64,000 bases of DNA. Source: Acidimicrobiales bacterium. GTDB lineage: Bacteria; Actinomycetota; Acidimicrobiia; Acidimicrobiales; Bin134. The DNA lies in NCBI GenBank assembly GCA_965115985.1, contig OZ220474.1, forward strand, positions 2,974,707 through 3,038,706, in the 5' to 3' direction. Below, one piece after another: positions 13,401-63,785 of the stretch. A program made the translations under genes and the position numbers. Under the pieces are notes generated by a model. That model made no database searches, had not been told where the DNA came from, and saw only the letters and a program-made list of their open reading frames with translations. Position 1 is the first letter of the stretch; each line of letters starts with the position of its first letter.

Positions 13401-14756
13401 GTTGCCGCCTCGCTTTTGAACCGAATCGAGGGCGATGGGGCCTACGCCAACCTGGTGCTGGCCTCGGCCGACCTGCCCGAGCGTGACGCGCCTTTCATCA
13501 CCGAGCTGGTCTACGGGGTTACCCGCATGCGCCGGGCCCTGGATTACCTGATCGACGGTTTCGTGGCCGACCCTCCCGACCTCGGCACCCGCAACCTGCT
13601 GCGGATCGGGGCCTACCAGCTCCACATGATGGCCACCCCGGCGTATGCCGCGGTGAGCGAGACCGTCCAAGCCTGCCCTCGTCGCCGCCGGGGATTCGTC
13701 AACGCCGTCCTGCGCCGGGTGGCCGAGATGGACCCGGTATGGCCTTCAGATGCGGTCCGATTGAGCTACCCGGATTGGATGTTGGAGCAACTGGAGGGCG
13801 ACCTCGGACCGGCTGATGCCCACGCCGCGCTGGAGCGGATGAACCAGCCGACCGCGGTCGCCACCCGATCCGACGGCTATGTCCAGGATCGGGCGTCGCA
13901 GTGGGTGGCCGAGCTGGTCGATCCCCAGCCGGGGAATCTGGTTCTGGACATGTGCGCCGGTCCGGGAGGAAAGGCCACGGCCATGGCCGGGAGATCGGTG
14001 ATTTCGGAGAGCCCAGCCGAAGCCGGGAGATCGGCAACGGCAAAGAGCCCAGCCGAAGCCGGGAGATCGGCAACGGCAAAGAGCCCAGCCGAAGCCGGGA
14101 GATCGGCAACGGCAAAGAGCCCAGCCGAAGCCGGGAGATCGGCAACGGCGGAGAGCCCAGCCGGAGCCGGGAGATCGGCAACGGCGGAGAGCCCAGGAAC
14201 GGCCAAAAGTCCGCCCATCGTGGTGGCTGCCGATCACCGCCGTCATCGAGCATTGCTGGTGGCGAACAACTCCATCCGCTCCGGTGTCCCCCTGGCCGGT
14301 GTGGTGGTCGCCGACGGCCGTCAACCGCCGTTTCGCTCCGGTTCTTTCGACCGGGTGCTGGTGGATGCCCCCTGCTCTGGTCTGGGGGTGCTGGGGCGTC
14401 GGGCCGATGCCCGCTGGCGGGTGGGTCCCGACGACGTGGAGGAGCTGGCCCGTCTCCAGTCCGAGTTGGTTCGGACCGCATTTCGTTTGGTCCGTCCCGC
14501 GGGAGTGGTGGTGTACAGCGTCTGCACCATGACCGTGGCCGAGACGGTGGCCATCGACGACATGGTGGCCCGGGAGCACCCGGATGCCGTGCCGGTGGTC
14601 ATCGACGACATGGTGGCTCGGGAGCACCCGGACACCGTGCCGGTGACCATCGACGACACCCGCTGGCGGCCCTGGGGCCGTGGAGCCCTCGTCCTCCCCC
14701 AGGACCACGACACCGACGGGATGTTCGTCGCCATCTACATGACTCCCGCAGGCTGA
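13257..14756 (+). CDS. rsmB: 16S rRNA (cytosine967-C5)-methyltransferase RsmB/Sun
   Basis: NusB-like N-domain (ARAVAASLLNRIEGDGAYANLVL), SAM motif DMCAGPGGKA, and catalytic region DRVLVDAPCSGLGVLGRRADARWR. The start can be any of four in-frame GTGs (13257, 13293, 13329, 13365). Confidence 0.85.
   Translation: MNPAGGGRNARAVNPTGGERNARAVNPAGGERNARAVNPAGGERNARAVAASLLNRIEGDGAYANLVLASADLPERDAPFITELVYGVTRMRRALDYLIDGFVADPPDLGTRNLLRIGAYQLHMMATPAYAAVSETVQACPRRRRGFVNAVLRRVAEMDPVWPSDAVRLSYPDWMLEQLEGDLGPADAHAALERMNQPTAVATRSDGYVQDRASQWVAELVDPQPGNLVLDMCAGPGGKATAMAGRSVISESPAEAGRSATAKSPAEAGRSATAKSPAEAGRSATAKSPAEAGRSATAESPAGAGRSATAESPGTAKSPPIVVAADHRRHRALLVANNSIRSGVPLAGVVVADGRQPPFRSGSFDRVLVDAPCSGLGVLGRRADARWRVGPDDVEELARLQSELVRTAFRLVRPAGVVVYSVCTMTVAETVAIDDMVAREHPDAVPVVIDDMVAREHPDTVPVTIDDTRWRPWGRGALVLPQDHDTDGMFVAIYMTPAG
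13986..14207 (+). repeat. 36-bp x~6 in-frame tandem repeat inside rsmB, encoding (SPAEAGRSATAK)n
   Basis: Units begin at 14009, 14045, 14081, 14117 and 14153, with partial copies at both edges. The array sits immediately after the GPGGKATAMAG SAM-binding motif. Confidence 0.93.
14553..14660 (+). repeat. 48-bp x2.2 in-frame tandem repeat near the rsmB C-terminus, encoding IDDMVAREHPD(A/T)VPV(V/T)
   Basis: atcgacgacatggtggc occurs at 14553 and 14601, with a partial copy at 14649. Confidence 0.92.
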
Positions 14757-22052: not shown

Positions 22053-23198
22053 ATGAGCTGGGTGGAGGGGATCGTGTTCACGGTGGGGGCGCTGATCTCC
22101 CTGGGCACGCTGCTGGCCGCGGTCCGAACGGTTGTGGTTCCCCGAGCCGAGCGGAGCCTGCTGATCCGTTTCGTCTACGTCGGCGTGGGGTTGCTGTTCT
22201 CGTTGCTGGCCCGGCACCGCAAGTCCTACGAGTCGCGGGACACGCTTCTGGCCCGCTACGCCTCGACCACGCTGATGATGCTGCCGTTCGTGTGGGCCAC
22301 CGGGATCGTCTACGGGTTCTCGCTCATGTTCTGGGCCAACGGTGTGCGCCCGTACCGGGAGTCCTTGATGTTGAGCGGGTCTTCGCTGGCCACGTTGGGT
22401 TTCCGGGAGAAGAACGACCTGGTGAGCCTGATGCTGGCCATAATCGAGGCGCTCATAGGCCTGGGCATCGTGGCGCTTTTGATCAGCTTTCTTCCCGCCA
22501 TGTACAGCGCGTTCAGTTCTCGGGAGGCCGCGGTCGCCCGACTCGAGGTCAGGGCCGGCACCCCCCCGACGCCGGAGGCCATGATCATTCTGGCTCACAA
22601 GCACGGGGCCCTGGAGTCCATGGGCGATACCTGGACCGAGTGGGAGCACTGGTTCATCCAGATCGAGGAGACCCATCAGATCTTCCCGGCGCTGTCCTTC
22701 TTCCGGTCGGTCCGCTCCGACCGATCGTGGGTCGTCGCCGCCGGTGCCGTCCTGGACACCGCGGCCATCATGTTGTCCACGGTGGCGGTACCTCACTCGC
22801 CGACGGTGCCGTTCATGATCCGGTCGGGTTATATGGCCCTGCGGCACATCGCCGACTTCCTCGGTATCGACTACGACCCCGATCCGCGGCCCACCGACCC
22901 GATCACCGTGCGCCGCCACGAGTTCCACAAAACCTACGAGACGTTGAAAAACGCCGGGGTGCCGGTGGTGGAGGATCGTGACCAGGCGTGGCGTGACTTC
23001 GCCGGTTGGCGGGTCAACTACGACGATTGTCTGGTAGGGCTGGCCTCGATCACCTCGGCCCCACCGGGCAAGTGGAGCAGCGACCGTCCGTCCCCCTACC
23101 ACCGACTGCCATTGCTCCACCGCCCCCGACACCGCCCCCGGACTCCCCTGTTGCGCCAACTCCTGCGCCGATCCGACGATTCGGCGAGGCGGCGGTGA
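22053..23198 (+). CDS. Membrane protein with possible 2-TM pore-loop (ion-channel-like) N-terminal half and cytosolic C-terminal domain
   Basis: The layout is TM - SGSSLATLGFRE - TM (LVSLMLAIIEALIGLGIVALLISFL), which resembles a K+-channel pore helix, filter and inner helix. The function is not established. The stop TGA 23196-23198 lies in the first unit of the downstream 37-bp array. Confidence 0.7.
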   Translation: MSWVEGIVFTVGALISLGTLLAAVRTVVVPRAERSLLIRFVYVGVGLLFSLLARHRKSYESRDTLLARYASTTLMMLPFVWATGIVYGFSLMFWANGVRPYRESLMLSGSSLATLGFREKNDLVSLMLAIIEALIGLGIVALLISFLPAMYSAFSSREAAVARLEVRAGTPPTPEAMIILAHKHGALESMGDTWTEWEHWFIQIEETHQIFPALSFFRSVRSDRSWVVAAGAVLDTAAIMLSTVAVPHSPTVPFMIRSGYMALRHIADFLGIDYDPDPRPTDPITVRRHEFHKTYETLKNAGVPVVEDRDQAWRDFAGWRVNYDDCLVGLASITSAPPGKWSSDRPSPYHRLPLLHRPRHRPRTPLLRQLLRRSDDSARRR

Positions 23199-23393
23199 TT
23201 TCGTGGGAGCGTGCGGTTCGGCGAGGCGGCGGTGATTTCGTGGGAGCGTGCGGTTCGGCGAGGCGGCGGTGATTTCGTGGGAGCGTGCGGTTCGGCGAGG
23301 CGGCGGTGATTTCGTGGGAGCGTGCGGTTCGGCGAGGCGGCGGTGATTTCGTGGGAGCGTGCGGTTCGGCGAGGCGGCGGTGATTTCTTCGGG
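23180..23393. repeat. 37-bp x5.6 tandem repeat starting at the stop codon of the preceding gene
   Basis: ttcggcgaggcggcggtgatttcgtgggagcgtgcgg starts at 23180, 23217, 23254, 23291, 23328 and 23365. The full copies are identical. Confidence 0.95.
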
Positions 23394-34305: not shown

Positions 34306-34378
34306 TCCGGGGTAGCTCAACCGGCAGAGCAAGCGGCTGTTAACCGCTAGGTTGTGAGTTCGAGTCTCACCCCCGGAG
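34306..34378 (+). tRNA. tRNA-Asn (anticodon GTT)
   Basis: I folded a full cloverleaf by hand. Acceptor TCCGGGG/CCCCGGA, D-stem GCTC/GAGC, anticodon arm AGCGG-CTGTTAA-CCGCT, T-arm GTGAG-TTCGAGT-CTCAC, discriminator G. No encoded CCA. Confidence 0.93.
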
Positions 34379-34422: not shown

Positions 34423-34592
34423 CTGTTGGCCGATTGGATCGGCCGACGGGATAGGCCGTTGGGATATCGGGTGGTTGACCGATTGGGTAGGCCGTTGGGA
34501 TATCGGACGGCTGGCCGATTGGGTAGGCCGTTGGGATATCGGACGGCTGGCCGATTGGGTAGGCCGTTGGGATATCGGACGGCATGCCAACA
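34423..34592. repeat. 36-bp x~4.5 tandem repeat filling the spacer between two tRNA genes
   Basis: taggccgttgggatatcggacggctggccgattggg starts at 34452, 34488, 34524 and 34560, with a partial copy from 34423. Confidence 0.93.
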
Positions 34593-34606: not shown

Positions 34607-34682
34607 GATGTGGCCGGGCCCGTAGCTCAGTGGTCAGAGCAGGCGACTCATAATCGCTCGGTCGCGGGTTCGATCCCCGCCG
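34607..34682 (+). tRNA. tRNA with CAT anticodon, probably tRNA-Ile2 (lysidine) rather than elongator Met; CCA encoded
   Basis: Cloverleaf GGGCCCG/CGGGCCC, anticodon arm GGCGA-CTCATAA-TCGCT, T-arm GCGGG-TTCGATC-CCCGC. G1-C72 excludes an initiator. C4-G69/C5-G68 and an anticodon arm nearly identical to my recollection of E. coli ileX favour Ile2. Confidence 0.9.
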
Positions 34683-34904
34683 GGCCCACCACGCACCACC
34701 AGGGTGCCCATGCACCGCTGGGGGGGATGGCCGGAGATAATCCGGCGGGTTCTGCTATTAGTGACGGGCACCATAAGGGTGCCCATGCACCGCTGGGGGG
34801 AGGGGGGGATGGTGCCAGGGGGCTGTTCGGTTGAGGACCGGTCCGGTGTCCCGGCTACGGTGACGACGGGGGCGCACCCTCGGGGTTGCACCTTCGGGGT
34901 TGTT

Positions 34905-36026: not shown

Positions 36027-36463
36027 GCCAGACCCCCCCATCCAACCGAACCGACGGCCAGGAAGCACCCGACTCCCGTCTGATCGTCGTCGTGCCCCAT
36101 GAGCCCGGGCAGCTCGCCCACGTCGCCGGCCTGTTGGCCGAGGAGAACATCGACGTCGAGGCCATGGACGGGCACCTCGTCGGAGAGCTCGGTGTCCTCA
36201 TGCTCAGCACCAGCGACGACGACACCGCACTCCATGTCCTGCTCAAGGCCAACCTTCGGGCCGTGACCTCCGACGCTCTCGTCTTCCACATGCTCGACCG
36301 TCCCGGTGCCCTGGCCGGCGTTGTGCAGTTGTTCGAGCAGAACGGCCTCAACGTCCGTACCATCCATATCATCCACCGCCATGCCGGCTCTGCCGTGGTC
36401 GCCGTCTCCACCGACAACGACGACCTCGCGCTCACCCTGCTCGACCGCGATTCCCTCCTCTAG
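36023..36463 (+). CDS. Tandem ACT-domain protein, translationally coupled to hdc
   Basis: The ATG at 36023 overlaps the hdc TGA (ATGA). Two ACT-like units are present (LIVVVPHEPGQLAHVAGLLAEENIDVEAM and LVFHMLDRPGALAGVVQLFEQNGLNVRTI). Confidence 0.75.
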   Translation: MSQTPPSNRTDGQEAPDSRLIVVVPHEPGQLAHVAGLLAEENIDVEAMDGHLVGELGVLMLSTSDDDTALHVLLKANLRAVTSDALVFHMLDRPGALAGVVQLFEQNGLNVRTIHIIHRHAGSAVVAVSTDNDDLALTLLDRDSLL

Positions 36464-36590
36464 TGGTTCCTGCCGGTAGCCGCAGCCAAAGCTGCTCGAC
36501 CGCGATTCCCTCCTCTAGTGGTTCCTGCCGGTAGCCGCAGCCAAAGCTGCTCGACCGCGGCTCTCTGCTCTGTCTGTTCCTCCCAGCAAC
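36437..36590. repeat. 55-bp x2 (+ degenerate third) tandem repeat copying the ACT-gene stop region
   Basis: ctgctcgaccgcgattccctcctctagtggttcctgccggtagccgcagccaaag occurs at 36437 and 36492, with a diverged copy from 36547. The first copy contains the TAG at 36461-36463. Confidence 0.92.
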
Positions 36591-37453: not shown

Positions 37454-37636
37454 TTCTACCGGGGGTTTGTCGGTCCGTCGTTGCGGGTTGACCGGGCCGG
37501 GATCGTGGAACGGGTTCTACCGGGGGTTTGTCGGTCCGTCGTTGCGGGTTGACCGGGCCGGGATCGTGGAACGGGTTCTACCGGGGGGTTGCCGGTCTGT
37601 CGTCGCGGGTTGACCGGGCCGGGATCGTGGATCGGG
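37454..37636. repeat. 61-bp x3 tandem repeat between two co-directional genes (5' region of the PAP2 gene)
   Basis: ttctaccgggggtttgtcggtccgtcgttgcgggttgaccgggccgggatcgtggaacggg starts at 37454, 37515 and 37576. Confidence 0.93.
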
Positions 37637-37640
37637 TGGG

Positions 37641-38417: not shown

Positions 38418-39332
38418 ATGGCGGTTCTCGACCGGGCGGCCGGGGCGGTGGCCGCGGCGGTCGCCCGGACCAAGGGTGGGGAAACGACCGGGATGCGGGA
38501 GGGCCAGTACGACTTCGACGTGGCCGCCGACGAGGCGGCCCTGGCGGTACTGACCGGGGCCGGCTTCGGGGTGTACAGCGAGGAGTCGGGGTGGCACGAC
38601 GCCGACCGGGAGATGGTGGTGGTGCTCGATCCGGTGGATGGCTCCACCAACGCGGCGCGCGGTCTCCCCTGGGTCTCCACCAGCCTGTGCGTGGTGGACT
38701 CGGAGGGAATGCTGGCCGCGCTGGTGCAGAACCTGGTGAACGGCCGGGCCTACCGGGCGATCAGGGGCCGGGGTTCCACCGTGGACGGCCGACCGCTGGT
38801 GTCTTCGGCCGGACCGGGTAATCCCTGGGGCTCGGGCCCGTCCGCCCAGGTGTCTTCGGCCGGACCGGGTAATCCCTGGGGCTCGGGCCCGTCGGCCCAG
38901 GTGTCTTCGGCCGGACCGGGTAATCCCTGGGGCTCGGGCCCGTCGGCCCAGGTGTCTTCGGCCGGACCGGGTAATCCCTGGGGCTCGGGCCCGTCGGCCC
39001 AGGAGTCGTTGGCCGCGGCCACCGTGGGGTTGACCGGCCTGCCACCCCGGAACCTGGGGTGGGGGCAGTACCGATCCATGGGATCCATCGCCCTGGATCT
39101 GTGCGCCGTGGCCGAGGGAGTGCTGGACGCCTACATCGACTGCACCCCCGAAGGTCATGCCACATGGGACTATCTGGGCGGCATCCTGGTGTGTGACGAG
39201 GCCGGGGTGGCGGTGGACGAGGCCCGGGGGTGCTCCCTGCTGCCCGACGACCTGGCGGAGCGCCGCCTCCCCGTGGCGGCCGCCACCGACCCACTGCTCT
39301 TCGAGGTTCTGGTTCAGCGCCGCAAGTTCTAA
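38418..39332 (+). CDS. Inositol monophosphatase family protein (SuhB/ImpA/CysQ-like)
   Basis: Metal-binding motifs are EESG, VVLDPVDGSTNAARG and WDYLGGILVCDEAG. The ATG at 38418 lies inside ORF 38256-39332. Confidence 0.85.
   Translation: MAVLDRAAGAVAAAVARTKGGETTGMREGQYDFDVAADEAALAVLTGAGFGVYSEESGWHDADREMVVVLDPVDGSTNAARGLPWVSTSLCVVDSEGMLAALVQNLVNGRAYRAIRGRGSTVDGRPLVSSAGPGNPWGSGPSAQVSSAGPGNPWGSGPSAQVSSAGPGNPWGSGPSAQVSSAGPGNPWGSGPSAQESLAAATVGLTGLPPRNLGWGQYRSMGSIALDLCAVAEGVLDAYIDCTPEGHATWDYLGGILVCDEAGVAVDEARGCSLLPDDLAERRLPVAAATDPLLFEVLVQRRKF
38799..39002 (+). repeat. 51-bp x4 in-frame tandem repeat inside the IMPase gene, encoding (VSSAGPGNPWGSGPSAQ)x4
   Basis: gtgtcttcggccggaccgggtaatccctggggctcgggcccgtcSgcccag starts at 38799, 38850, 38901 and 38952. 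Confidence 0.95.
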
Positions 39333-39348: not shown

Positions 39349-39422
39349 GGGCGCGTAGCTCAGATGGCAAGAGCGCTTCCCTTACAAGGAAGAGGCCGGG
39401 GGTTCAAGTCCCTCCGCGCCCA
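39349..39422 (+). tRNA. tRNA-Val (anticodon TAC)
   Basis: Acceptor GGGCGCG/CGCGCCC, anticodon arm CTTCC-CTTACAA-GGAAG, T-arm GGGGG-TTCAAGT-CCCTC, discriminator A. Confidence 0.92.
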
Positions 39423-40942: not shown

Positions 40943-41737
40943 GTGGAGATTCGGCGATTGGGCGGAGCGCTGGGTGCGGAGGTGGTGGGGCTCGATACGG
41001 CTCGGGAAGTGGACGGCGATGGGTTCGATGCGGTACGCGACGCTCTCCATCAGAATGGTGTGATCTGCATCCGGGATCAGGGGGCGATGACCCCCGAGGA
41101 ACAGCTTGCCTTTGCCGCCCGATGGGGGCCGATCTCCATCCACCCCTACGTGCCGTCGATCGAGGGGCATCCCGGGATCATGAGGATCTACGACCCGAAC
41201 CCCATCACCCAGACCTGGCATTCCGATTCGACCCACATGCGCGAACCTCACGCCTACACCCTGTTGCTGGCCCGGACTCTGCCCGAGGTGGGGGGCGATA
41301 CGATGTTCGCCAGCGCCACCAAGGCGTTCGAGTCGCTTTCGTCCGGGCTCCGGTCGATGTTGCGCTCCCTCTCGGCCGTTCACGAGGGCACCGATCGAGC
41401 CGCTGATGCCGGGTTGGACCACGATTCGGTGGTGGCGATCCATCCGGTGGTGATAACCCACCCGAGTACCGGGGCCGAGGCGCTGTTCGTCAACGACAAC
41501 TACGTGACCCGCATTGATGGGTGGACCCCCGAGGAAAGTCGCCCGCTTCTGGAGTACCTCTATTCGGTGGTGGGGCGTTACGAGAACACCTACCGGCATC
41601 GCTGGCGCGAGGGCGATCTGGTTGTCTGGGACAACCGATCCACCCAGCACGCCGTGGTCGGTGACGTCGGTGGAGCCGAGCGGGTGCTTCATCGGGTCAC
41701 GATTGCCGGGAGTGCTCCTGTTCGATCCGCTGCCTGA
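40943..41737 (+). CDS. TauD/TfdA-family Fe(II)/2-oxoglutarate dioxygenase
   Basis: The WHSDSTH (HxD) iron motif, ARTLPEVGGDTMFAS, and a C-terminal WDNRSTQHAVV...R.LHRVTI. Confidence 0.9.
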   Translation: MEIRRLGGALGAEVVGLDTAREVDGDGFDAVRDALHQNGVICIRDQGAMTPEEQLAFAARWGPISIHPYVPSIEGHPGIMRIYDPNPITQTWHSDSTHMREPHAYTLLLARTLPEVGGDTMFASATKAFESLSSGLRSMLRSLSAVHEGTDRAADAGLDHDSVVAIHPVVITHPSTGAEALFVNDNYVTRIDGWTPEESRPLLEYLYSVVGRYENTYRHRWREGDLVVWDNRSTQHAVVGDVGGAERVLHRVTIAGSAPVRSAA

Positions 41738-41813
41738 TCGGTCCGATCGGTTCATCGGGTCACGATTGCCGGGAGCGCTCCTGTTCGATCAGCAGCCTGA
41801 TCGGCCCGATCAG
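41688..41813. repeat. 63-bp x2 tandem duplication spanning the stops of convergent TauD and acyl-CoA dehydrogenase genes
   Basis: ttcatcgggtcacgattgccgggag occurs at 41688 and 41751. The TauD TGA (41735-41737) is in copy 1 and the ACAD stop (41810-41812, minus strand) is at the end of copy 2. Confidence 0.92.
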
Positions 41814-43422: not shown

Positions 43423-43863
43423 TCAGCAGTCGGCGCAGTGGCCGTGGAGGTCAAGGCTGTGGTGGGCGGGGGTGAACCCGGTGCGCTCGGCGATGTCGTC
43501 CAGGCTCCGGTGAACGAGATTCTCAAGATCGTTCTCGAGATGGATGTCCTCGATGGTGCCGCAGCCGATGCAGATCATGTGATGATGGTGCCCCAGCAGG
43601 GGCTCGGCCAGTTCAAAGTGGACCCGATCCCCCCCGGAGACGATACGACGGACGACCCCGCTGCGAACCAGCAGATCCAGATTGCGGTACACCGAACTCG
43701 GGGCCAAATCCGGGTCGGCCGCCACGATGTCGGGCAGGGTCATCGGCTGGTCGGAACCGTGGATCACCTCGATGAGCTTCCTCCGGCCTTTGGTGTAGCG
43801 ATGATCCTGGCGGGCCAGCTTGGCTCCTACCTGTAGGTGAAGTTCGTTCAAATAGCTTCTCAT
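43423..43863 (-). CDS. zur: Fur-family metalloregulator, probably Zur
   Basis: 146 aa from ATG 43863 (alternative 43896). Winged-helix part: RYTKGRRKLIEVI...MTLPDIV. Metal sites: HHHHMICIGCG...HGHCADC. It is divergent from a znuA-type gene. Confidence 0.8.
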   Translation of the reverse strand: MRSYLNELHLQVGAKLARQDHRYTKGRRKLIEVIHGSDQPMTLPDIVAADPDLAPSSVYRNLDLLVRSGVVRRIVSGGDRVHFELAEPLLGHHHHMICIGCGTIEDIHLENDLENLVHRSLDDIAERTGFTPAHHSLDLHGHCADC

Positions 43864-43924
43864 ATGAGGGTATTCGAGGATTTGACCGCCATCCATGCCC
43901 AGTATTTCACCTGGGCCTGGCTGG

Positions 43925-43975
43925 TTGCGTCCATTGTTCGACATTTGTATAATAATGAGAATGATTACTAATATC
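43925..43975. promoter_or_regulatory. AT-rich divergent control region: candidate -35/-10 promoter plus Fur/Zur-box-like dyad overlapping the znuA start
   Basis: This is among the most AT-rich stretches of the window. TTGCGT (43925-43930), then 17 nt, then a perfect TATAAT (43948-43953). The 19-mer aataatgagaatgattact (43951-43969) matches 14/19 positions of the classical Fur box GATAATGATAATCATTATC. An ATG at 43961 lies 7 nt after the -10 box, so the mRNA could be leaderless. Confidence 0.5.
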
Positions 43976-45367
43976 AAAAAGGCGTTGGCCGGTGGCTTTG
44001 CTGCTCTGGCCGTTCTGGCCCTGGTGGCATCGGGTTGCGGTAACGATGACGATGCCGCCGACGGCCAAGTATCGGATGATCGGCCGACGGTGATGGCCAC
44101 CACCTCAATCTGGGCCGATGTGGTGACCAACGTGGCTTGTGACGGGCTGGCCGACGTGGTGACGCTGATTCCCCCGGGCGGGGATCCTCACGCCTTTCAA
44201 CCTTCCTTGCAGGACCGGGGCCGCATGGACGATGCCGTCATGATCGTGGCCAACGGTCTTGACTTGGAGGAGGGTGTGATCGACACCATCGAAGCGGTTG
44301 AGGAGGCCGGCACGCCGGTATTTCACGTAGCCGATCACGTCGAGACCATCGGATTCGCCCCCGGTATGGAGTTGGACCACGACGACGAGGACGATCACGG
44401 CGACGATCACGGCGACGAGGACGATCATGGCGACGAGGACGACCATGGCGAGGAAGATGGTGACCACGGCGAGGAAGAGGCTGACGATCATGGCGACGAG
44501 GACGATCATGGCGACGAAGATGGTGACCACGGCGAGGAAGAGGCTGACGATCATGGCGACGAGGACGATCACGGCGAGGAAGAGGCTGACCACGGCGAGG
44601 AAGAGGCTGACGATCATGGCGACGAGGACGATCACGGCGAGGAAGAGGCTGACGATCATGGCGACGAGGACGATCACGGCGAGGAAGAGGCTGACGATCA
44701 TGGCGACGAGGACGATCACGGCGAGGAAGAGGCTGACGATCATGGCGACGAGGACGATCACGGCGAGGAAGAGGCTGACGATCATGGCGACGAGGACGAT
44801 CACGGCGACGAGGACGACGGCCATGGGCACGACCATGGGGCGGAGGACCCCCATATTTGGTTCGATCCGGTGAAGGTGGCGGGCGCGCTGCCTGCGCTCG
44901 GCGAGGCTCTGGGGTCGGCTGCTGGTCTGGATGCTGATGCACTGGATGCTTGCGTGGCGGCATACCGGGAGGAACTGATGGCCCTCGACGCGGAGGTCGA
45001 GAGAATCCTGGAACCGATTGCCCAGGAGGATCGCCTGATGGTCACCAACCACGATGCCCTGGGATATTTCGCCGACCGCTACGGATTCCGGCTGATCGGG
45101 ACGGTTATCCCCGGCGGCTCATCCATGGGCACGGCCAACCCGGCCAACCTTCAGGAGCTGGTGGAACTGATCGACCAGACCGGAGTGCGGGCCATATTCG
45201 CCGAGTCCACGCACAGTTCCCAGGACGCGGAGGCTCTGGGCCGGGAGGCCGGTGTGCAGGTTGTGGTGCTGGATACCGGGTCGCTGGGTCCCGCGGGCAG
45301 CGATTCGGGCACCTACATAGGCTTCATGCGGGCCAACGCCCATAGGATCGCCATCGGCCTCGGCTGA
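43955..45367 (+). CDS. znuA: Metal (Zn/Mn)-binding lipoprotein of an ABC importer, ZnuA/TroA family, with giant His/Asp/Glu-rich loop
   Basis: Lipoprotein signal MRMITNIKKALAGGFAALAVLALVASGC. Cluster-9 SBP blocks: VMATTSIWADVV, GGDPHAFQPS, DPHIWFDP, VTNHDALGYFADRYGF. Between them lies an acidic/His segment of about 150 residues. Alternative starts are 43961 and 43895. Confidence 0.88.
   Translation: MRMITNIKKALAGGFAALAVLALVASGCGNDDDAADGQVSDDRPTVMATTSIWADVVTNVACDGLADVVTLIPPGGDPHAFQPSLQDRGRMDDAVMIVANGLDLEEGVIDTIEAVEEAGTPVFHVADHVETIGFAPGMELDHDDEDDHGDDHGDEDDHGDEDDHGEEDGDHGEEEADDHGDEDDHGDEDGDHGEEEADDHGDEDDHGEEEADHGEEEADDHGDEDDHGEEEADDHGDEDDHGEEEADDHGDEDDHGEEEADDHGDEDDHGEEEADDHGDEDDHGDEDDGHGHDHGAEDPHIWFDPVKVAGALPALGEALGSAAGLDADALDACVAAYREELMALDAEVERILEPIAQEDRLMVTNHDALGYFADRYGFRLIGTVIPGGSSMGTANPANLQELVELIDQTGVRAIFAESTHSSQDAEALGREAGVQVVVLDTGSLGPAGSDSGTYIGFMRANAHRIAIGLG
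44383..44835 (+). repeat. In-frame repeat region encoding the (DHGDEDDHGEEEAD)n loop; five perfect 42-bp units
   Basis: gaggaagaggctgacgatcatggcgacgaggacgatcacggc occurs at 44597, 44639, 44681, 44723 and 44765. More divergent copies lie upstream from about 44383. Confidence 0.93.
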
Positions 45368-45402: not shown

Positions 45403-46266
45403 ATGGAGTTCTTGACCAACCCGGTCGAGTGGTGGGTCGAGCCCTTCATCGACAACATCTTCATGCGCAATGCCCTGTGGTCGGGACTGCTGGCCGTTTT
45501 GACCACCTCGACGGTCGGAACCTGGGTGGTGCTCCGAGGGATGAGCTTCTTGGGCGAAGCTCTGGCTCACGGGGTGCTGCCCGGCCTGGCCATCGCTTTC
45601 ATCATCGGGGGTGATACCACCATTGGTGCGTTGGTGGCCGCCCTGGCCATGGTGGGCGGCATCAATATCGTTCGTAGTCACTCGCCGCTGCCCGACGACA
45701 GCACCATCGGGTTGCTCTATGTGGGATTCCTGGCCACGGCGGTGGTGATCATGTCCACCAGTTCGGGGGCGTACTCCGGTGAGCTCACCCGGTTCCTGTT
45801 CGGTTCGATCACCGGGGTGACGGACAGTGATCTTGTCCGCCAGCTCGTCATTGCCGGGATCGTGATGGTCGGGGTGGTGGTGCTGCACCGGGCGTTTCTG
45901 GTCTTGACCTTCGACATGGTCCAGGCTCGCCTCTTCGGATTCCGCCCCCAGTTGACCCACGCCGCTCTGCTGGCGCTTCTGGCCATCTCGATCGTGGCGT
46001 CGTTCCAAGCCGTCGGAAATCTGCTGGTGTTCGCGTTCTTGGTGGCCCCTCCGTCGGCCGCGGCCATGCTGGTGCGCCGGATCCCGGCAATCATGGTCGT
46101 CGCAGTTGGTCTCGGTGTGGTCTCGGTGGTGGTCGGTCTGCTCATCAGCTACCACCACGACACCGCGGCCGGTGCCACCATGGCGCTGGGGGCGGTGGTG
46201 CTGTTCCTGGTCGCTATTTTGATCCGGGCCTGCTTGGGGTCCTACAACGTCAGGTTGGCCACCTAG
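45403..46266 (+). CDS. znuB: ABC-3 family metal importer permease
   Basis: 287 aa with 8-9 TM segments: FMRNALWSGLLAVLTTSTVGTWVVLRGMSFLGEALAHGVLPG. Confidence 0.9.
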   Translation: MEFLTNPVEWWVEPFIDNIFMRNALWSGLLAVLTTSTVGTWVVLRGMSFLGEALAHGVLPGLAIAFIIGGDTTIGALVAALAMVGGINIVRSHSPLPDDSTIGLLYVGFLATAVVIMSTSSGAYSGELTRFLFGSITGVTDSDLVRQLVIAGIVMVGVVVLHRAFLVLTFDMVQARLFGFRPQLTHAALLALLAISIVASFQAVGNLLVFAFLVAPPSAAAMLVRRIPAIMVVAVGLGVVSVVVGLLISYHHDTAAGATMALGAVVLFLVAILIRACLGSYNVRLAT

Positions 46267-46370
46267 CTCGGGGGTTCGTCACCTGATCAGGGGGATTGGC
46301 CACCTAGTTCGGGGGTTCGTCACCTGATCAGGGGGATTGGCCACCTAGTTCGGGGGTTCGTCACCTGGTT
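46257..46370. repeat. 41-bp x2.7 tandem repeat beginning with the znuB stop codon
   Basis: ggccacctag occurs at 46257 (TAG 46264-46266), 46298 and 46339. Confidence 0.9.
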
Positions 46371-49426: not shown

Positions 49427-49640
49427 CATCGTAATCGTGGGGGCCGGTTCGGGGGTTGGGGCATGAACGGGGCGACGGCCTCCCAGCCGGTCGATACCGT
49501 CGTCGTGGGGGCCGGTTCGGGGGTTGGGGCATGAACGGGGCGACGGCCTCCCAGCCGGTCGATACCGTCGTCGTGGGGGCCGGTTCGGGGGTTGGGGCAT
49601 GAACGGGGCGACGGCCTCCCAGCCGGTCGATACCGTCGTC
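49427..49640 (+). repeat. 68-bp x3.1 tandem repeat of the GMC oxidoreductase 5' end (start codon plus first 22 codons)
   Basis: atgaacggggcgacggcctcccagccggtcgataccgtcgtcgtgggggccggttcgggggttggggc has its ATG at 49463, 49531 and 49599. Confidence 0.95.
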
Positions 49641-51140
49641 GTGGGGGCCGGTTCGGCGGGGTCGGTGCTGGCTGCCCGGTTGTCCGAGGATCCCGCTCGC
49701 CGGGTGGTGCTGCTCGAAGCCGGTCCCGATCATGGTGACCGCCCGCCCCCGGAACTGGCCGACGTCACCGAGTCGTCCCACCCTGATCATGATTGGGGCG
49801 ATGAGGTGCGTCTGCCCGGGGGTCGAACCCAGCACTATCCCCGGGGACGGGTGGTGGGCGGCAGTTCGGCGGTCAACGGCGGCATCGCCGTCCGGGCCAT
49901 GCCCGCCGATTTCGATGCCTGGGGATTTCCCGAATGGCGGTGGGAGGCGATTCTGGATGGCTTCCGGCGACTGGAATCCGATCCTGACGGCGAGGATCGC
50001 TGGCACGGTCGAAACGGCCCGTTGCCCATTGTCCGCACGCCCGAGGCCGATCTCCACCCGGTTCATGTCGCCTTCTACGAGGCGTGCCGGTGGGCCGGTC
50101 ACGGCTTTGTCGCCGATCACAACGCCCCGGATTCCACCGGTGTGGGTCCGCTGCCCCGCAATCGCCGGGGTCGGCAACGGGTATCGGCGGCGGACGCCTA
50201 CCTGACTCCCGAGGTCCGGGGCCGCCCCAACCTGGAGGTTCGAGGCGGTTGCCCGGTTTCGTCGGTGCGGTGGAGCGGCCGCCGGGCCGTGGGGGTAAAC
50301 GTGGCCGGCAGCCACGGGCTGGAGGCCGTCGTCGCCGGGGAGGTGATAGTGGCGGCCGGGGTGGTGCAGTCCCCGCTGCTGTTGTGGCGTTCCGGTATCG
50401 GCCCGGCCTCGGAGCTGGCCGGTTTGGGGCTGGACGTCGTGGTGGACCGCCCCGGGGTGGGGGCGAACCTCTCCGATCACCCCGCGATCTATCAGTTCGC
50501 CGTACCCAAGCCCCGGATGGTGTCCCCGAGCGACGTCACCATCCAGACCCTATTGCGGTTCACCAGCTCGACCGGCCCTACCAACGATCTCCAACTGTTC
50601 CCCGTAGGGGTGATCGACCTGTCGGCCAACCCCCGGCGGCGGGCCGAGGCCGGCGGAGTGGACACCGTCTTCGCGTTGGTGGCGGCCCTGCAACGGGTGG
50701 AGAGCCGGGGGTCGGTGCGACCGGTATCGGCCGATCCCGGGTATCCGCCCGCCATCACCTATCCGTTCATGGCTCACAAGCCCGACCGGGATCGACTGGT
50801 CGAGGCTCTGGAGCTGGGGCTGGAGCTGCTGGGCTCGCCCCCGTATCAAAACGTGGCCGACGGTCCCTTGTTCCTGCCCGACAAGCTCGACCGTGACGAA
50901 CTGTCCGCCCATGTGTTCGCCAATCATGTGGCCTTCTATCACGGAGCGGGCACGTGTGCGATGGGCTCGCCCGACGATTCCGGCGCGGTGGTCGGCCCCC
51001 ACGGGCAGGTGTGGGGCACCGAGGGGCTGCGGGTGTGCGATGCCTCCATCATCCCCGAAACCCCGAGAGCCAACACCAACCTGAACGTCATCGCCATCGC
51101 CGAGCACATGTCCGACCTGCTCCGAAAGGGTGGGCCATAG
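49599..51140 (+). CDS. GMC-family FAD oxidoreductase (choline dehydrogenase-like)
   Basis: MNGATASQPVDTVVVGAGSAGSVLAARLSEDP..VLLEAG (Rossmann GxGxxG). GMC signature regions GG.S.VNG and a C-terminal HGAGTCAMG. Confidence 0.9.
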   Translation: MNGATASQPVDTVVVGAGSAGSVLAARLSEDPARRVVLLEAGPDHGDRPPPELADVTESSHPDHDWGDEVRLPGGRTQHYPRGRVVGGSSAVNGGIAVRAMPADFDAWGFPEWRWEAILDGFRRLESDPDGEDRWHGRNGPLPIVRTPEADLHPVHVAFYEACRWAGHGFVADHNAPDSTGVGPLPRNRRGRQRVSAADAYLTPEVRGRPNLEVRGGCPVSSVRWSGRRAVGVNVAGSHGLEAVVAGEVIVAAGVVQSPLLLWRSGIGPASELAGLGLDVVVDRPGVGANLSDHPAIYQFAVPKPRMVSPSDVTIQTLLRFTSSTGPTNDLQLFPVGVIDLSANPRRRAEAGGVDTVFALVAALQRVESRGSVRPVSADPGYPPAITYPFMAHKPDRDRLVEALELGLELLGSPPYQNVADGPLFLPDKLDRDELSAHVFANHVAFYHGAGTCAMGSPDDSGAVVGPHGQVWGTEGLRVCDASIIPETPRANTNLNVIAIAEHMSDLLRKGGP

Positions 51141-56829: not shown

Positions 56830-57527
56830 CGGCTACGTCGCACCAGACGGCCGTGGGCAAGGTCATATACCTCTCCCATCTGGTCGGCAACCGACTGGTC
56901 ATGGGTGGAAACCACCAGAGTGGCCCCGGAATCGGCAGAGGCAATCCGCAGCACCGACATCACTTGTCGCGAACCGGCCTCGTCGAGCGAACCGGTCGGC
57001 TCGTCGCACAAGATTACTTCGGGGCGAGTAACCAGAGCTCGGGCCATTGCAACCCTTTGGGTCTCACCCCCGGACAACTGAGCCGGCCACGCCCTCGGAT
57101 TGTCGAAACCAACAGCCTCAAGCGCATCATTTACGAGATCGGCCGAGGGCCTATCACCTCTAAGCAACAGCGGAAGCACCAGGTTCTCACCAACCCTTAA
57201 TTCCGGCAACAACTCACCGAACTGGAAAACCATCGAGAGCTTGCTCTGGCGCAGAACTGCCCTGTCTTTTGCATGAGCTCGTAGAAGATCCAAACCGGCA
57301 ACGCTCACCCGACCACCATCGGGAACAATGATCCCCGCCAGAATGTGCAACAAGGTTGTCTTACCCGACCCACTCGGACCCATAACCGCTACCTGACTCC
57401 CCCTCGGAGCATCCCAGCAAAGCCCATTCAACACCCGCCGCTCCCCAAAAGAGAGAACAATGTCCACACACGAAATGGCGGAATTCGGGGTGGCGTTCAT
57501 AGGATTTCTGCTCTCGAGCTTATGCAA
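56826..57527 (-). CDS. ABC transporter ATP-binding protein (MacB/LolD-like)
   Basis: Walker A GPSGSGKTT, signature LSGGETQR, Walker B ILCDEPTGSLD. It is visibly lower in GC than its surroundings. Confidence 0.93.
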   Translation of the reverse strand: MHKLESRNPMNATPNSAISCVDIVLSFGERRVLNGLCWDAPRGSQVAVMGPSGSGKTTLLHILAGIIVPDGGRVSVAGLDLLRAHAKDRAVLRQSKLSMVFQFGELLPELRVGENLVLPLLLRGDRPSADLVNDALEAVGFDNPRAWPAQLSGGETQRVAMARALVTRPEVILCDEPTGSLDEAGSRQVMSVLRIASADSGATLVVSTHDQSVADQMGEVYDLAHGRLVRRSR

Positions 57528-57584
57528 AGACTCGGACTGTCGGTGAACCTACGTCTGCGATCGGGGGTTGTCAACCGAATGGTC

Positions 57585-62370: not shown

Positions 62371-63534
62371 CTAGTGGGAGTGGGAGAAGAACTGGAGGAT
62401 CTTGGACTTGTGACGGATTTCCTTCTCGGTGGCCAGGAGATGATCCACATGGTGGTTCTCGTTGCCGCAGTCGTCCACCGAGTGCTCGAGCTGAATGGTG
62501 GAGTGCTGGATTCCGTACCGACTGGCGATCGAGCGAATCCGTTTTAGCTGCGAGTCGGTTCCGCCCTCGTACTCGTAGTCCGGGTCGGCCAGAACGTGGG
62601 CGGTCATCGACAGATACCCGGAGGTGATGGTTCGGACATGTACGTCGTGGACGATGGTTACGCCCTCCACGTCTTCGATTTCGGCGCAGAGCTTGAACAC
62701 GTCCACGTGCTCGGGAGTTCCGTCGATCAGCACGTGGAACACCTCGGTCACCAGATTCCAGGAACTCATGAGGATCAGCAAGCCAATGACCATACTGAGG
62801 ATCGGGTCAACGACGTCCCAGCCCAGGCTGAGCACCACGACCCCGGAAACCACCACGGCCACCGACCCCAGCAGGTCGGCCAATACATGCTGGAAGGCAC
62901 CCTCCACGTTCAGACTGTGCTGGGACTGCCGATGGAGAATCCAGGCCACCAGGACATTGATCAACAGACCGGCGGCACCGACGATGAGCATGAGCGCGCC
63001 CTCGACTTCGGCCTCGTCGCCGATTCGGTGGAAGGCCTCGTAGAAGATCCAGGCCACGATCACCCACAGGGACAAAACGTTGAACAACGCGGCCAGTATC
63101 TCGGTTCGATAGAAGCCGAAGGTCCGGTGGGTCGAGGGCGGCCGGTCGGCGGCCCACATGGCGAACAGCGCCAGCCCGATGGCCGCGCTGTCGGTGAGCA
63201 TGTGCCCGGCATCGGCGATAAGCGCCAAGCTGCCCGAGGCAATACCGCCGATCACCTCGATCACCATGAAGGTGGTGGTCAAGGTAACCGCCAGAATCAG
63301 ACTGCGGCGGCTGGCCTCCCGCAGGTCGTGATGGTGGTGCCCGTGATCGTGGTCATGGTGGTGGTCGTGCCCATGATCGTGGTCATGACTGTGGTCGTGA
63401 CCATGGTGGTGATCGTGCTCATGACTGTGGTCATGCCCGTGATTGTGACCATGGCCACCACCATGATCTTCCTCGTGACCATGGTGGTGATCGTGCCCAT
63501 GCTCATGGTCGTGACCACGATCAGATTTTGCCAC
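62371..63534 (-). CDS. Cation diffusion facilitator (CzcD/ZitB-type) exporter with 65-residue His-rich N-terminus
   Basis: CDF TM core (GSLALIADAGHMLTDSAAIG, HVLADLLGS) and a C-terminal cytosolic domain. The N-terminus reads GHDHEHGHDHHHGH...HDHDHGHHHH. The GTG start shares one base with the upstream TAG (TAGTG). Confidence 0.92.
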   Translation of the reverse strand: MAKSDRGHDHEHGHDHHHGHEEDHGGGHGHNHGHDHSHEHDHHHGHDHSHDHDHGHDHHHDHDHGHHHHDLREASRRSLILAVTLTTTFMVIEVIGGIASGSLALIADAGHMLTDSAAIGLALFAMWAADRPPSTHRTFGFYRTEILAALFNVLSLWVIVAWIFYEAFHRIGDEAEVEGALMLIVGAAGLLINVLVAWILHRQSQHSLNVEGAFQHVLADLLGSVAVVVSGVVVLSLGWDVVDPILSMVIGLLILMSSWNLVTEVFHVLIDGTPEHVDVFKLCAEIEDVEGVTIVHDVHVRTITSGYLSMTAHVLADPDYEYEGGTDSQLKRIRSIASRYGIQHSTIQLEHSVDDCGNENHHVDHLLATEKEIRHKSKILQFFSHSH

Positions 63535-63761
63535 TAGGCCGCTTTACAGCACTCGTCGGTGTGGACGTGTACTGGGATGTTGCAGTGGTCCTCGTGGTCG
63601 GCATGGGTGTGCTCACCGGCATCGCAGTGAGCAGAGTGATCGTGACTGTCGTCACAGTGATCGGCGTGGTTGTGCTCCACCTGATCGCAGTGATCCTCGT
63701 GGTCGGCGTGGGTGTGCTCCGGGTGGTCGTAGCACGAATCGGAGTGGACATGATCTGACAT
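63534..63761 (-). CDS. 75-aa His/Cys/Asp-rich putative metal-binding protein, translationally coupled to the CDF gene
   Basis: The ATG at 63761 is preceded by GAAAGG 7 nt upstream. The product MSDHVHSDSCYDHPEHTHADHEDHCDQVEHNHADHCDDSHDHSAHCDAGEHTHADHEDHCNIPVHVHTDECCKAA has 19 His, 7 Cys and 14 Asp (counted), with an internal repeat EHTHADHEDHC x2. Confidence 0.7.
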   Translation of the reverse strand: MSDHVHSDSCYDHPEHTHADHEDHCDQVEHNHADHCDDSHDHSAHCDAGEHTHADHEDHCNIPVHVHTDECCKAA

Positions 63762-63785
63762 GATCTGGCCTTTCTGATGGTGGCT

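Follow-up and report, generated by a model that had tools for sequence, protein, structure and literature searches.

How does a bacterial zinc-type binding protein come to carry, right beside its metal site, a loop of about 160 residues made almost wholly of aspartate, glutamate, histidine and glycine, and what might such a loop be for? The question is raised by a gene in a 64,000-nucleotide stretch of an Acidimicrobiales genome (contig OZ220474.1, positions 2,974,707 to 3,038,706 of the forward strand; hereafter the window). An earlier reading of the bare letters (the original prediction) had described a ZnuA-type protein whose His/Asp/Glu loop, put at about 150 residues, had recently been enlarged by tandem duplication and could act as a metal sponge. 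Our analysis supports growth of the loop through in-frame tandem duplication, with a recent last step, and finds its length among the greatest in a continuous spread of loop lengths, extreme but not unique. As to function, we favour with moderate confidence a role in gathering zinc for import.

A repeat-built loop beside a three-histidine site

The features of the gene, in window coordinates, are as follows.

43955-45367 (including the stop codon), plus strand: gene for a cluster A-I metal (zinc-type) substrate-binding lipoprotein of 470 amino acids
43955-44038, plus strand: signal peptide with lipobox (LVASG-C28)
44189-44191, plus strand: codon for His79, the first metal ligand, in a GGDPH motif
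44375-44845, plus strand: the loop, 22 HG-terminated modules of 4-9 residues each, the first counted from D141
44591-44808, plus strand: perfect period-42 run, 218 bp, 5.19 copies
44852-44854, plus strand: codon for His300, the second metal ligand, in a DPHIW motif directly 3' of the loop
45050-45052, plus strand: codon for His366, the third metal ligand, in TNHDALGYF

The loop comprises residues 141-297, and its translation is as the original prediction quoted it. Residues 141-300, a span that takes in three residues (D-P-H300) of the conserved motif beyond the loop end, hold 59 Asp and 39 Glu, with 26 each of His and Gly, nine Ala and one Pro but neither lysine nor arginine, giving a net charge of -98. 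Almost all of the loop histidines (23 of 26) are followed by glycine, at a spacing of 6-8 residues. The loop is predicted to be disordered: in an AlphaFold2 model built on 40 homologues, residues 136-296 have a predicted local distance difference test (pLDDT) score of about 44-50 and no secondary structure.

The DNA behind the loop records how it was made. Five 42-bp units, starting at 44597, 44639, 44681, 44723 and 44765, are base-for-base identical (GAGGAAGAGGCTGACGATCATGGCGACGAGGACGATCACGGC, encoding EEEADDHGDEDDHG) and fill positions 44597-44806 of the perfect run delimited by an exact periodicity test; a perfect periodic run of 218 bp cannot have arisen by chance. Tandem Repeats Finder (TRF) extends the period of 42 to 9.8 copies over 44402-44808 at 80% match, adds a 63-bp super-period and reports periods of 42, 63, 18 and 30 within the loop. 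Upstream of the perfect run lie two diverged 63-bp blocks (44450-44575; E/D-EDGDHG, EEEADDHG, DEDDHG), and splitting the translation at each HG exposes DDHG/DEDDHG modules, upstream in the loop, that we read as older still. Copies of one module type show synonymous differences only, whilst related module types differ from each other by, among others, an Asp/Glu change and a one-codon deletion. The identical 42-bp units, the diverged 63-bp blocks and the mostly synonymous or Asp/Glu differences between modules together argue for a repeat origin, with the perfect run as the most recent expansion. The five identical units and older upstream copies of the original prediction were thus recovered by periodicity test, TRF and module splitting alike, and its claim of a recent expansion stands on the same identical units and diverged modules.

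In this loop and in those of the 12 closest relatives, each period reported by TRF is a multiple of three (the scan of loops for perfect runs was confined to periods of this kind), so slippage alters the length of the protein and keeps the reading frame. The locus is accordingly not one at which slippage would switch expression on and off by frameshift, as at a classical contingency locus.

What kind of protein carries this loop? Its sequence scores place it in the ZnuA/TroA family (Pfam PF01297: E=8e-52, 176.8 bits against a cutoff of 29), with profile positions 1-261 of 263 covered and the loop accommodated as an insertion. The best NCBIfam model is AztC (NF040870; 223.6 bits, below the cutoff of 350, in a match split in two by the loop), and the equivalog for E. 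coli-type ZnuA scores much lower (NF007091; 60.3 bits against a cutoff of 268). These scores put the protein among the cluster A-I binding proteins of zinc type, in the part of the family around AztC and TroA, and speak for an orthologue of neither AztC nor E. coli ZnuA. The signal peptide (MRMITNIKKALAGGFAALAVLALVASGC; N-terminus MRMITNIKKALAGGFAALAVLALVASG-C28) ends in a lipobox, with Cys28 conserved to at least 90% across the homologue alignments (of 20 and 40 homologues), and residues 1-27 have an AlphaFold2 pLDDT below 50. An alternative ATG upstream, at 43895, would give a 490-residue product.

The core of the AlphaFold2 model is confident (blocks at pLDDT 90-98, with helices 305-323 and 327-352 following the loop) and has the two-lobe alpha/beta fold joined by a long rigid helix that is typical of the family. 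A Foldseek search of the PDB superposes it on YfeA, TroA, AztC, PsaA, MntC and ZnuA with target template-modelling (TM) scores of 0.85-0.92, and TroA is also the top solved-structure match by sequence (2e-26). Pfam, the TroA match and the structural superposition all bear out the assignment to ZnuA-type binding proteins.

The metal site can be read from an alignment to Treponema pallidum TroA, whose ligands we take to be His68, His133, His199 and Asp279, compared with the chain index. His79, His300 and His366 align with the three TroA histidines in that order; the columns of His79 and His366 are invariant among homologues, as are D298, P299, H300 and W302. In the phmmer alignment the position of TroA Asp279 is occupied by Gly442, at least 90% conserved in the clade. 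By alignment, then, this is a three-histidine site of the zinc type, in which glutamate or water supplies the fourth ligand. The loop lies beside the metal site: it occupies the canonical position of the flexible His/acidic loop, just before the DPH.W ligand motif, and is much enlarged there. In the published classification, histidine rather than glutamate at the third ligand marks a zinc-type site, and three histidines without an Asp/Glu pair, together with a flexible loop, are the zinc-type signature of groups I and II (PMC7731109). Zinc is thus the metal we infer for this protein.

Loop length among relatives and repeats across the window

For comparison between proteins, loop length was taken as the segment between two alignment anchors, ...ETIGF and DPHIW, which gives 163 residues for the window protein. 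The original prediction put such loops at only a few tens of residues, and for characterised proteins this holds. Solved single-domain relatives total 260-330 residues, so their loops can be at most about 40. The D-loop of AztC has 17 residues with three histidines (PMC7463823); the loop of Paracoccus denitrificans ZnuA, at over 30 residues, has been termed 'extremely long' (PMC7731109), and so, as 'particularly long', has the 61-residue loop of ZrgA from Vibrio cholerae, a protein outside the ZnuA family (PMC9820375). Loops of Gram-positive proteins are usually shorter, according to one review (PMC9175090).

It holds for the wider family too. When a short-loop homologue (P0019) was searched against 1.84 billion representatives clustered at 50% identity, 804 representatives scored E<=1e-30; of the best 150 matches, 133 could be measured (16 had no loop at all and one had no N-terminal anchor). 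Their median is 26 residues, with 26 proteins at 50 or more, five at 100 or more and two at 150 or more, namely P0175 (187 residues, DDDHA repeats) and P0233 (209 residues, a non-repetitive insert).

Among close relatives, however, this figure fails. The 144 nearest homologues have a median loop of 72.5 residues; 95 reach at least 50, 36 (25%) at least 100 and six at least 150, up to 211 in P0108, which leaves the window protein second of 145. This is not an artefact of searching with a long loop, because a query from which the loop had been deleted recovered mostly the same set, with no difference among the 85 closest proteins. Across 75 species-representative genomes the median is 30 residues, five have at least 100 and only one, L072 (187 residues, in a chromosome-level assembly), exceeds the window protein. 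The original prediction had granted that loops of this size, if common in related ZnuA proteins, would make this one unremarkable, and long loops are indeed common in the close clade; the claim to be exceptional is largely lost, whilst the extreme rank of the window protein remains. In the literature searched we found no description of a clade with long, fast-evolving loops of this kind.

The nearest homologues come from marine or sponge Acidimicrobiia, and the named matches include 'Candidatus Poriferisocius' (itself of the Acidimicrobiales), Sva0996, Aldehydirespiratoraceae and sponge-derived bins. The host bacterium probably belongs to a marine, sponge-associated clade around 'Candidatus Poriferisocius'. 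The Aldehydirespiratoraceae and Poriferisodalaceae are reported to hold sponge-symbiont lineages, in a paper that makes no mention of zinc (PMC11706023). Median loop length is 64 residues under sponge/marine-type labels (n=23) and 17 under soil/sediment/freshwater-type labels (n=27, none of 50 or more; Mann-Whitney p=1e-7), where the habitat groups are a reading of isolate and taxon names, some of them uncertain, and the test ignores phylogeny. A tie between long loops and a sponge or marine habitat is therefore suggestive only.

How fast does the length change? More than 25 pairs of homologues have cores that are 100% identical (about 247 aligned residues) and loops of different lengths, which bears out for the clade the suggestion that loop length would be polymorphic. 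Examples are the sets P0121/P0125/P0127 (14/48/79 residues), P0041/P0024/P0023 (52/93/107), P0048/P0027/P0061 (49/74/91) and P0077/P0049 (42/93). Pairs with at least 98% core identity differ by a median of 21.5 loop residues, and identical-core pairs by up to about 65, in a homologue database whose clustering at 90% identity hides identical pairs and whose short-read assemblies may have collapsed arrays. The relatives have perfect runs of their own (L067, 24 bp x 8.3; L051, 36 bp x 5.1; L060, 27 bp x 4.0; L034, 24 bp x 4.0), and the peptide units of their loops are mutually unrelated. Since units and periods differ in this way, the expansions must have been recurrent and independent: throughout the clade the loop goes on growing and shrinking by in-frame slippage rather than having grown once, and its length is a fast-evolving quantitative trait. 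Exact look-ups of both possible products of the window gene (470 and 490 residues) found no match, nor did two exact 35-36-mers flanking the loop in JGI metagenome contigs.

Some genomes hold two such proteins. L062 and L067 are paralogous binding proteins of one genome, with unrelated loops of 130 and 142 residues; P0025 and P0032, paralogues on one 3.57-Mb contig, likewise have unrelated loops of 118 and 63 residues.

Tandem repetition is not confined to the loop. The 64 kb of the window contain 29 tandem-repeat loci with a period of at least 15 bp, which make up 6% of the bases and amount to 4.5 loci per 10 kb. At least 14 have a period not divisible by three and are hence non-coding, and many fill short spacers between open reading frames (ORFs). 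Periods of 35-38 bp occur in 11 loci and of 61-68 bp in five; several arrays are at 100% identity, and the units look mutually unrelated. Examples (no strand given) are:

23180-23387, 49435-49656, 46255-46367 and 41688-41811: tandem-repeat loci
36437-36559, 37454-37637, 14008-14196 and 38798-39015: further tandem-repeat loci

This abundance supports a mutational process shared by the loop and the other repeats, as the original prediction had it. The znuA neighbourhoods of relatives hold about 2 repeats per 10 kb, the loop included, compared with 4.5 in the window. In L003, L033, L046 and L051 tandem repeats with periods of 18, 36, 117 and 126 bp lie at about 7900-8830, some 2 kb 3' of znuB, and presumably belong to another repeat-containing gene. 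Three tRNA genes (RF00005) lie in the window on the plus strand, at 34306-34378, 34616-34688 and 39349-39422, with a 36-bp x 4 tandem repeat (34441-34583) between the first two.

The import module and a proposed role for the loop

The binding-protein gene stands in a small module, whose other parts are:

43423-43863 (alternative start 43896), minus strand: Fur-family metalloregulator gene (PF01475, E=1.9e-18), divergent from the binding-protein gene
43946-43975, no strand assigned: AT-rich control region, with TGTATAAT at 43946-43953 and a conserved element, ATGAGAAyGATTAyT.ATA
45403-46266, plus strand: ABC-3 permease gene, ZnuB/AztB-like (PF00950, E=4.7e-58; AztB model 252.9 bits, below the cutoff of 280)

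From this context we infer that the regulator is Zur. The order regulator, binding protein, permease recurs in the 12 closest GTDB loci, with zur and znuB each present in 11 of them; L038 lacks a detected zur and the contig of L065 ends within znuA. The closest relatives (L001-L004, L023, L033, L034, L046, L047 and L051) resemble the window in having no ATPase gene beside the module, whilst in more distant Acidimicrobiia an ATPase gene lies divergently upstream; we propose that the ATPase of the importer is encoded at an unlinked site. Nor does any gene resembling AztD, ZinT or another chaperone adjoin the operon in the window, where the flanking genes encode unrelated metabolic enzymes (acyl-CoA dehydrogenase, TauD, MaoC and enoyl-CoA hydratase).

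The conserved element overlaps the start codon and is kept in all 12 aligned loci, where the 20 invariant columns are concentrated within it; the window has a single copy of its motif, where chance would give 0.07. Promoter-like hexamers lie near the control region on both strands, and a search by eye for a clean palindromic Zur box found a weak palindrome only. The element is a plausible candidate for the Zur operator. TGTATAAT ends 2 nt 5' of the ATG at 43955 and 7 nt 5' of an in-frame ATG at 43961, a spacing with which the mRNA of the binding-protein gene may be leaderless. The first seven codons of the gene coincide with the conserved DNA element, and the N-terminus of the signal peptide may thus be constrained by the operator. 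A search of the window against Rfam found the three tRNAs only, none of them near the znuA locus.

The reading that we favour is that of a Zur-controlled zinc-import lipoprotein in which a slippage-inflated, disordered, polyanionic loop gathers Zn2+ for the three-histidine site. The binding protein would be the membrane-anchored receptor of a high-affinity zinc importer of the ATP-binding cassette (ABC) type, encoded by a module of divergent zur, binding protein and permease, with the ATPase supplied from elsewhere. Replication slippage or unequal recombination between near-identical units rich in GAC, GAG, CAY and GGC would have inflated the loop (17-35 residues in characterised cluster A-I proteins) to about 160 residues by repeated in-frame duplication, the latest step taking one 42-bp unit to five identical copies. 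Near the cell surface, Zn2+ would then be caught by many weak His/carboxylate sites and handed on to the tight site (H79, H300 and H366) beside the C-terminal anchor of the loop, which would act, by analogy with shorter loops, as a low-affinity, high-capacity zinc-capturing tether. Those shorter loops add low-affinity zinc sites and mediate hand-off from chaperones, and are required neither for tight binding nor for docking to the permease (PMC7731109, PMC7463823, PMC9175090). Simple scaling from published loops would give the 26 loop histidines roughly 9-13 zinc sites.

Several observations weigh against this reading. The core resembles Mn/Fe binders (YfeA, PsaA, MntC) about as closely as it does zinc binders, and NCBIfam and PDB sequence scores do not separate the regulator as Zur, Fur or PerR. 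No ATPase gene adjoins the operon; the sole ABC ATPase of the window (56832-57548), 10 kb off, looks unrelated. Laboratory growth suffers little or not at all when the loop is deleted from P. denitrificans ZnuA and AztC, Salmonella ZnuA or V. cholerae ZrgA (PMC7731109, PMC9820375); loop length may therefore not matter. In seawater the 98 loop carboxylates would largely be filled by Mg2+ and Ca2+, and the D/E/H composition could persist merely because duplication copies existing sequence.

Several of these points lead to the alternative that survives best, and to which we give a real, if minor, chance: the long loop is a neutral by-product of a high rate of tandem duplication, its length drifting because a disordered loop tolerates in-frame growth and a short ancestral loop carries whatever function there is. 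The density of repeats in the window, at least 14 of them non-coding, is what such a process would leave behind, as are the wide range of loop lengths on identical cores, near-complete loss included (14 compared with 79 residues), and the lack of conservation of unit sequence and unit length across relatives; the near absence of a phenotype when loops are deleted in model organisms fits as well (PMC7731109, PMC9820375). Drift accounts less readily for loops that remain almost pure D/E/H/G over long divergence with regularly spaced histidines, for the clustering of long loops in sponge/marine-labelled metagenome-assembled genomes (the name-based medians of 64 and 17 residues given above, phylogeny ignored), or for relatives whose neighbourhoods are repeat-poor and whose loops are long all the same.

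Could the number of copies, or some of the array, be an error of assembly that hides a true loop of smaller or greater length? The perfect run of 218 bp exceeds typical short-read length, and the identical sequence was not found in the collections searched. Even so, the diverged upstream units alone would make a loop of more than 70 residues. Many independent assemblies, some of them at chromosome level, contain loops of similar or greater length (L072, 187 residues; L067, 142; L046, 100). Other perfect arrays of 208-222 bp in the same 64-kb stretch of contig suggest long reads, and assemblers tend to collapse arrays rather than inflate them. We consider such an error improbable.

A little less credible again is a role in interaction or regulation, with the loop serving as a docking arm for a surface metallochaperone or as an autoinhibitory sensor that closes the transporter when zinc is plentiful. 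The best curated match, AztC, has a loop that is needed for transfer from AztD (PMC7463823, PMC7731109), the hand-off between the ZnuA loop and ZinT is a further precedent, and a sensor role has been proposed for Synechocystis ZnuA (Wei et al. 2007, as cited in PMC9175090 and PMC8786288). The operon is without a neighbouring chaperone-like gene, however, and a docking surface is hard to square with unit sequences and lengths that differ among strains with identical cores.

Uptake of Mn and Fe in actinobacteria is usually under the control of DtxR-family rather than Fur-family regulators. This, the histidine at the third ligand with no Asp/Glu pair, and the lack of a flexible loop in Mn/Fe group III proteins (PMC7731109) make it very unlikely that the system imports Mn2+ or Fe2+, or that the loop serves bulk Ca2+/Mg2+ binding or surface charge, even granting a core as similar to Mn/Fe binders as to zinc binders, a regulator that scores slightly higher against Fur than Zur models and 98 loop carboxylates to 26 histidines.

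The zinc-gathering reading can be taken a step further, to a version that we hold to be rather unlikely as a whole. The loop would be an evolvable zinc 'antenna', with repeat slippage tuning capture radius or capacity between strains, and zinc-poor seawater or metal-sequestering host tissue would select for loops of 100-200 residues with perhaps at least 10 zinc sites. If so, the gene would be a contingency locus that acts quantitatively and without frameshifts on a protein of nutrient uptake, and the clade a set of natural length variants from which the purpose of His-rich loops could be worked out. Two decades on, their role is still called 'enigmatic', because deletion of short loops in model organisms does little (PMC7731109). 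The clade offers loops 5-10 times longer, together with identical-core strains that differ in loop length alone, in which the scaling of zinc stoichiometry, on-rate and uptake with loop length could be followed. More generally, a genome-wide tendency to tandem duplication can quickly remodel a surface nutrient receptor, and the textbook view of short loops in Gram-positive-type zinc-binding proteins needs correcting, the window gene being an extreme member of a clade where long loops are normal.

Two further genes in the window may bear on metal handling:

62371-63534, minus strand: cation-diffusion-facilitator (CDF) exporter gene (TIGR01297, 277 bits; nearest ZitB)
63534-63764, minus strand: small ORF of about 76 residues, immediately 5' of the CDF gene and overlapping the start of that gene with its stop

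The N-terminal tail of the exporter, about 70 residues long and rich in His (HDHEHGHDHHHGH...), is likewise encoded by tandem repeats, which have diverged (63328-63523); the exporter is thus the second metal-handling protein of the window with a repeat-built His-rich region. His, Cys and Asp abound in the product of the small ORF, where the motif H.DH.DHC recurs (MSDHVHSDSCYDHPEHTHADHEDHCDQVEHNHADHC...). This product matches nothing in Pfam or NCBIfam and could be a metallothionein-like protein or metallochaperone.

Comparison with known systems

The nearest characterised proteins are AztC of P. denitrificans and TroA of T. pallidum, zinc-binding proteins of cluster A-I that are group III-like, which share the fold (target TM 0.85-0.90) and have three histidines at the same positions. 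AztC, moreover, has its flexible D-loop before the second histidine, at the same site as the loop described here, and the permease of the window matches AztB. The differences are as plain. Where AztC has 17 loop residues with three histidines (PMC7463823) and TroA has no such loop, the window protein has about 160 residues and 26 histidines; the fourth ligand of TroA and AztC, Asp279, is replaced by Gly442, so the 3His/1Asp arrangement of AztC is absent; and the protein falls short of the AztC equivalog cutoff even though AztC is still its best-scoring model. The AztABCD operon also includes the aztD chaperone and aztA ATPase genes, neither of which is found near the operon in the window.

ZnuA of E. 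coli, Salmonella, Synechocystis 6803 and P. denitrificans offers a similar mixture. These proteins combine a three-histidine site with control by Zur, and next to the site they have a disordered His/Asp/Glu-rich loop that provides extra low-affinity zinc sites (PMC9175090, PMC7731109, PMC8786288). Group II ZnuA loops are about 20-35 residues long and are not arrays of identical DNA units, as this loop is, and the window protein is an actinobacterial lipoprotein, from a group in which loops are reported to be shorter (PMC9175090).

The closest parallels to the loop itself are in the sponge and marine Acidimicrobiia homologues (P0108, P0117, P0090, P0098 and P0010; L072, L067 and L062), which have the same gene and synteny and cores that are 49-79% identical, and of which we found no characterisation or description in the literature searched. 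Their loops of 130-211 residues consist of D/E/H/G only and are built from tandem units of their own, which differ from those of the window protein (DHDEDEDGH, HEHDEDE, DDDHA and others; 24, 27 and 36 bp).

For function, the most telling comparison is with ZrgA of V. cholerae. ZrgA has a ferredoxin-like fold, its loop is 2.6 times shorter and repeat-driven variation in its length has not been described, but it too is a binding protein for zinc import with an unstructured His/Asp/Glu loop, of 61 residues (PMC9820375). That loop provides 4-5 zinc sites, most of them of low affinity, and cells in culture can do without it (PMC9820375). Among experimental systems, ZrgA tells us most about what loops of this sort do.

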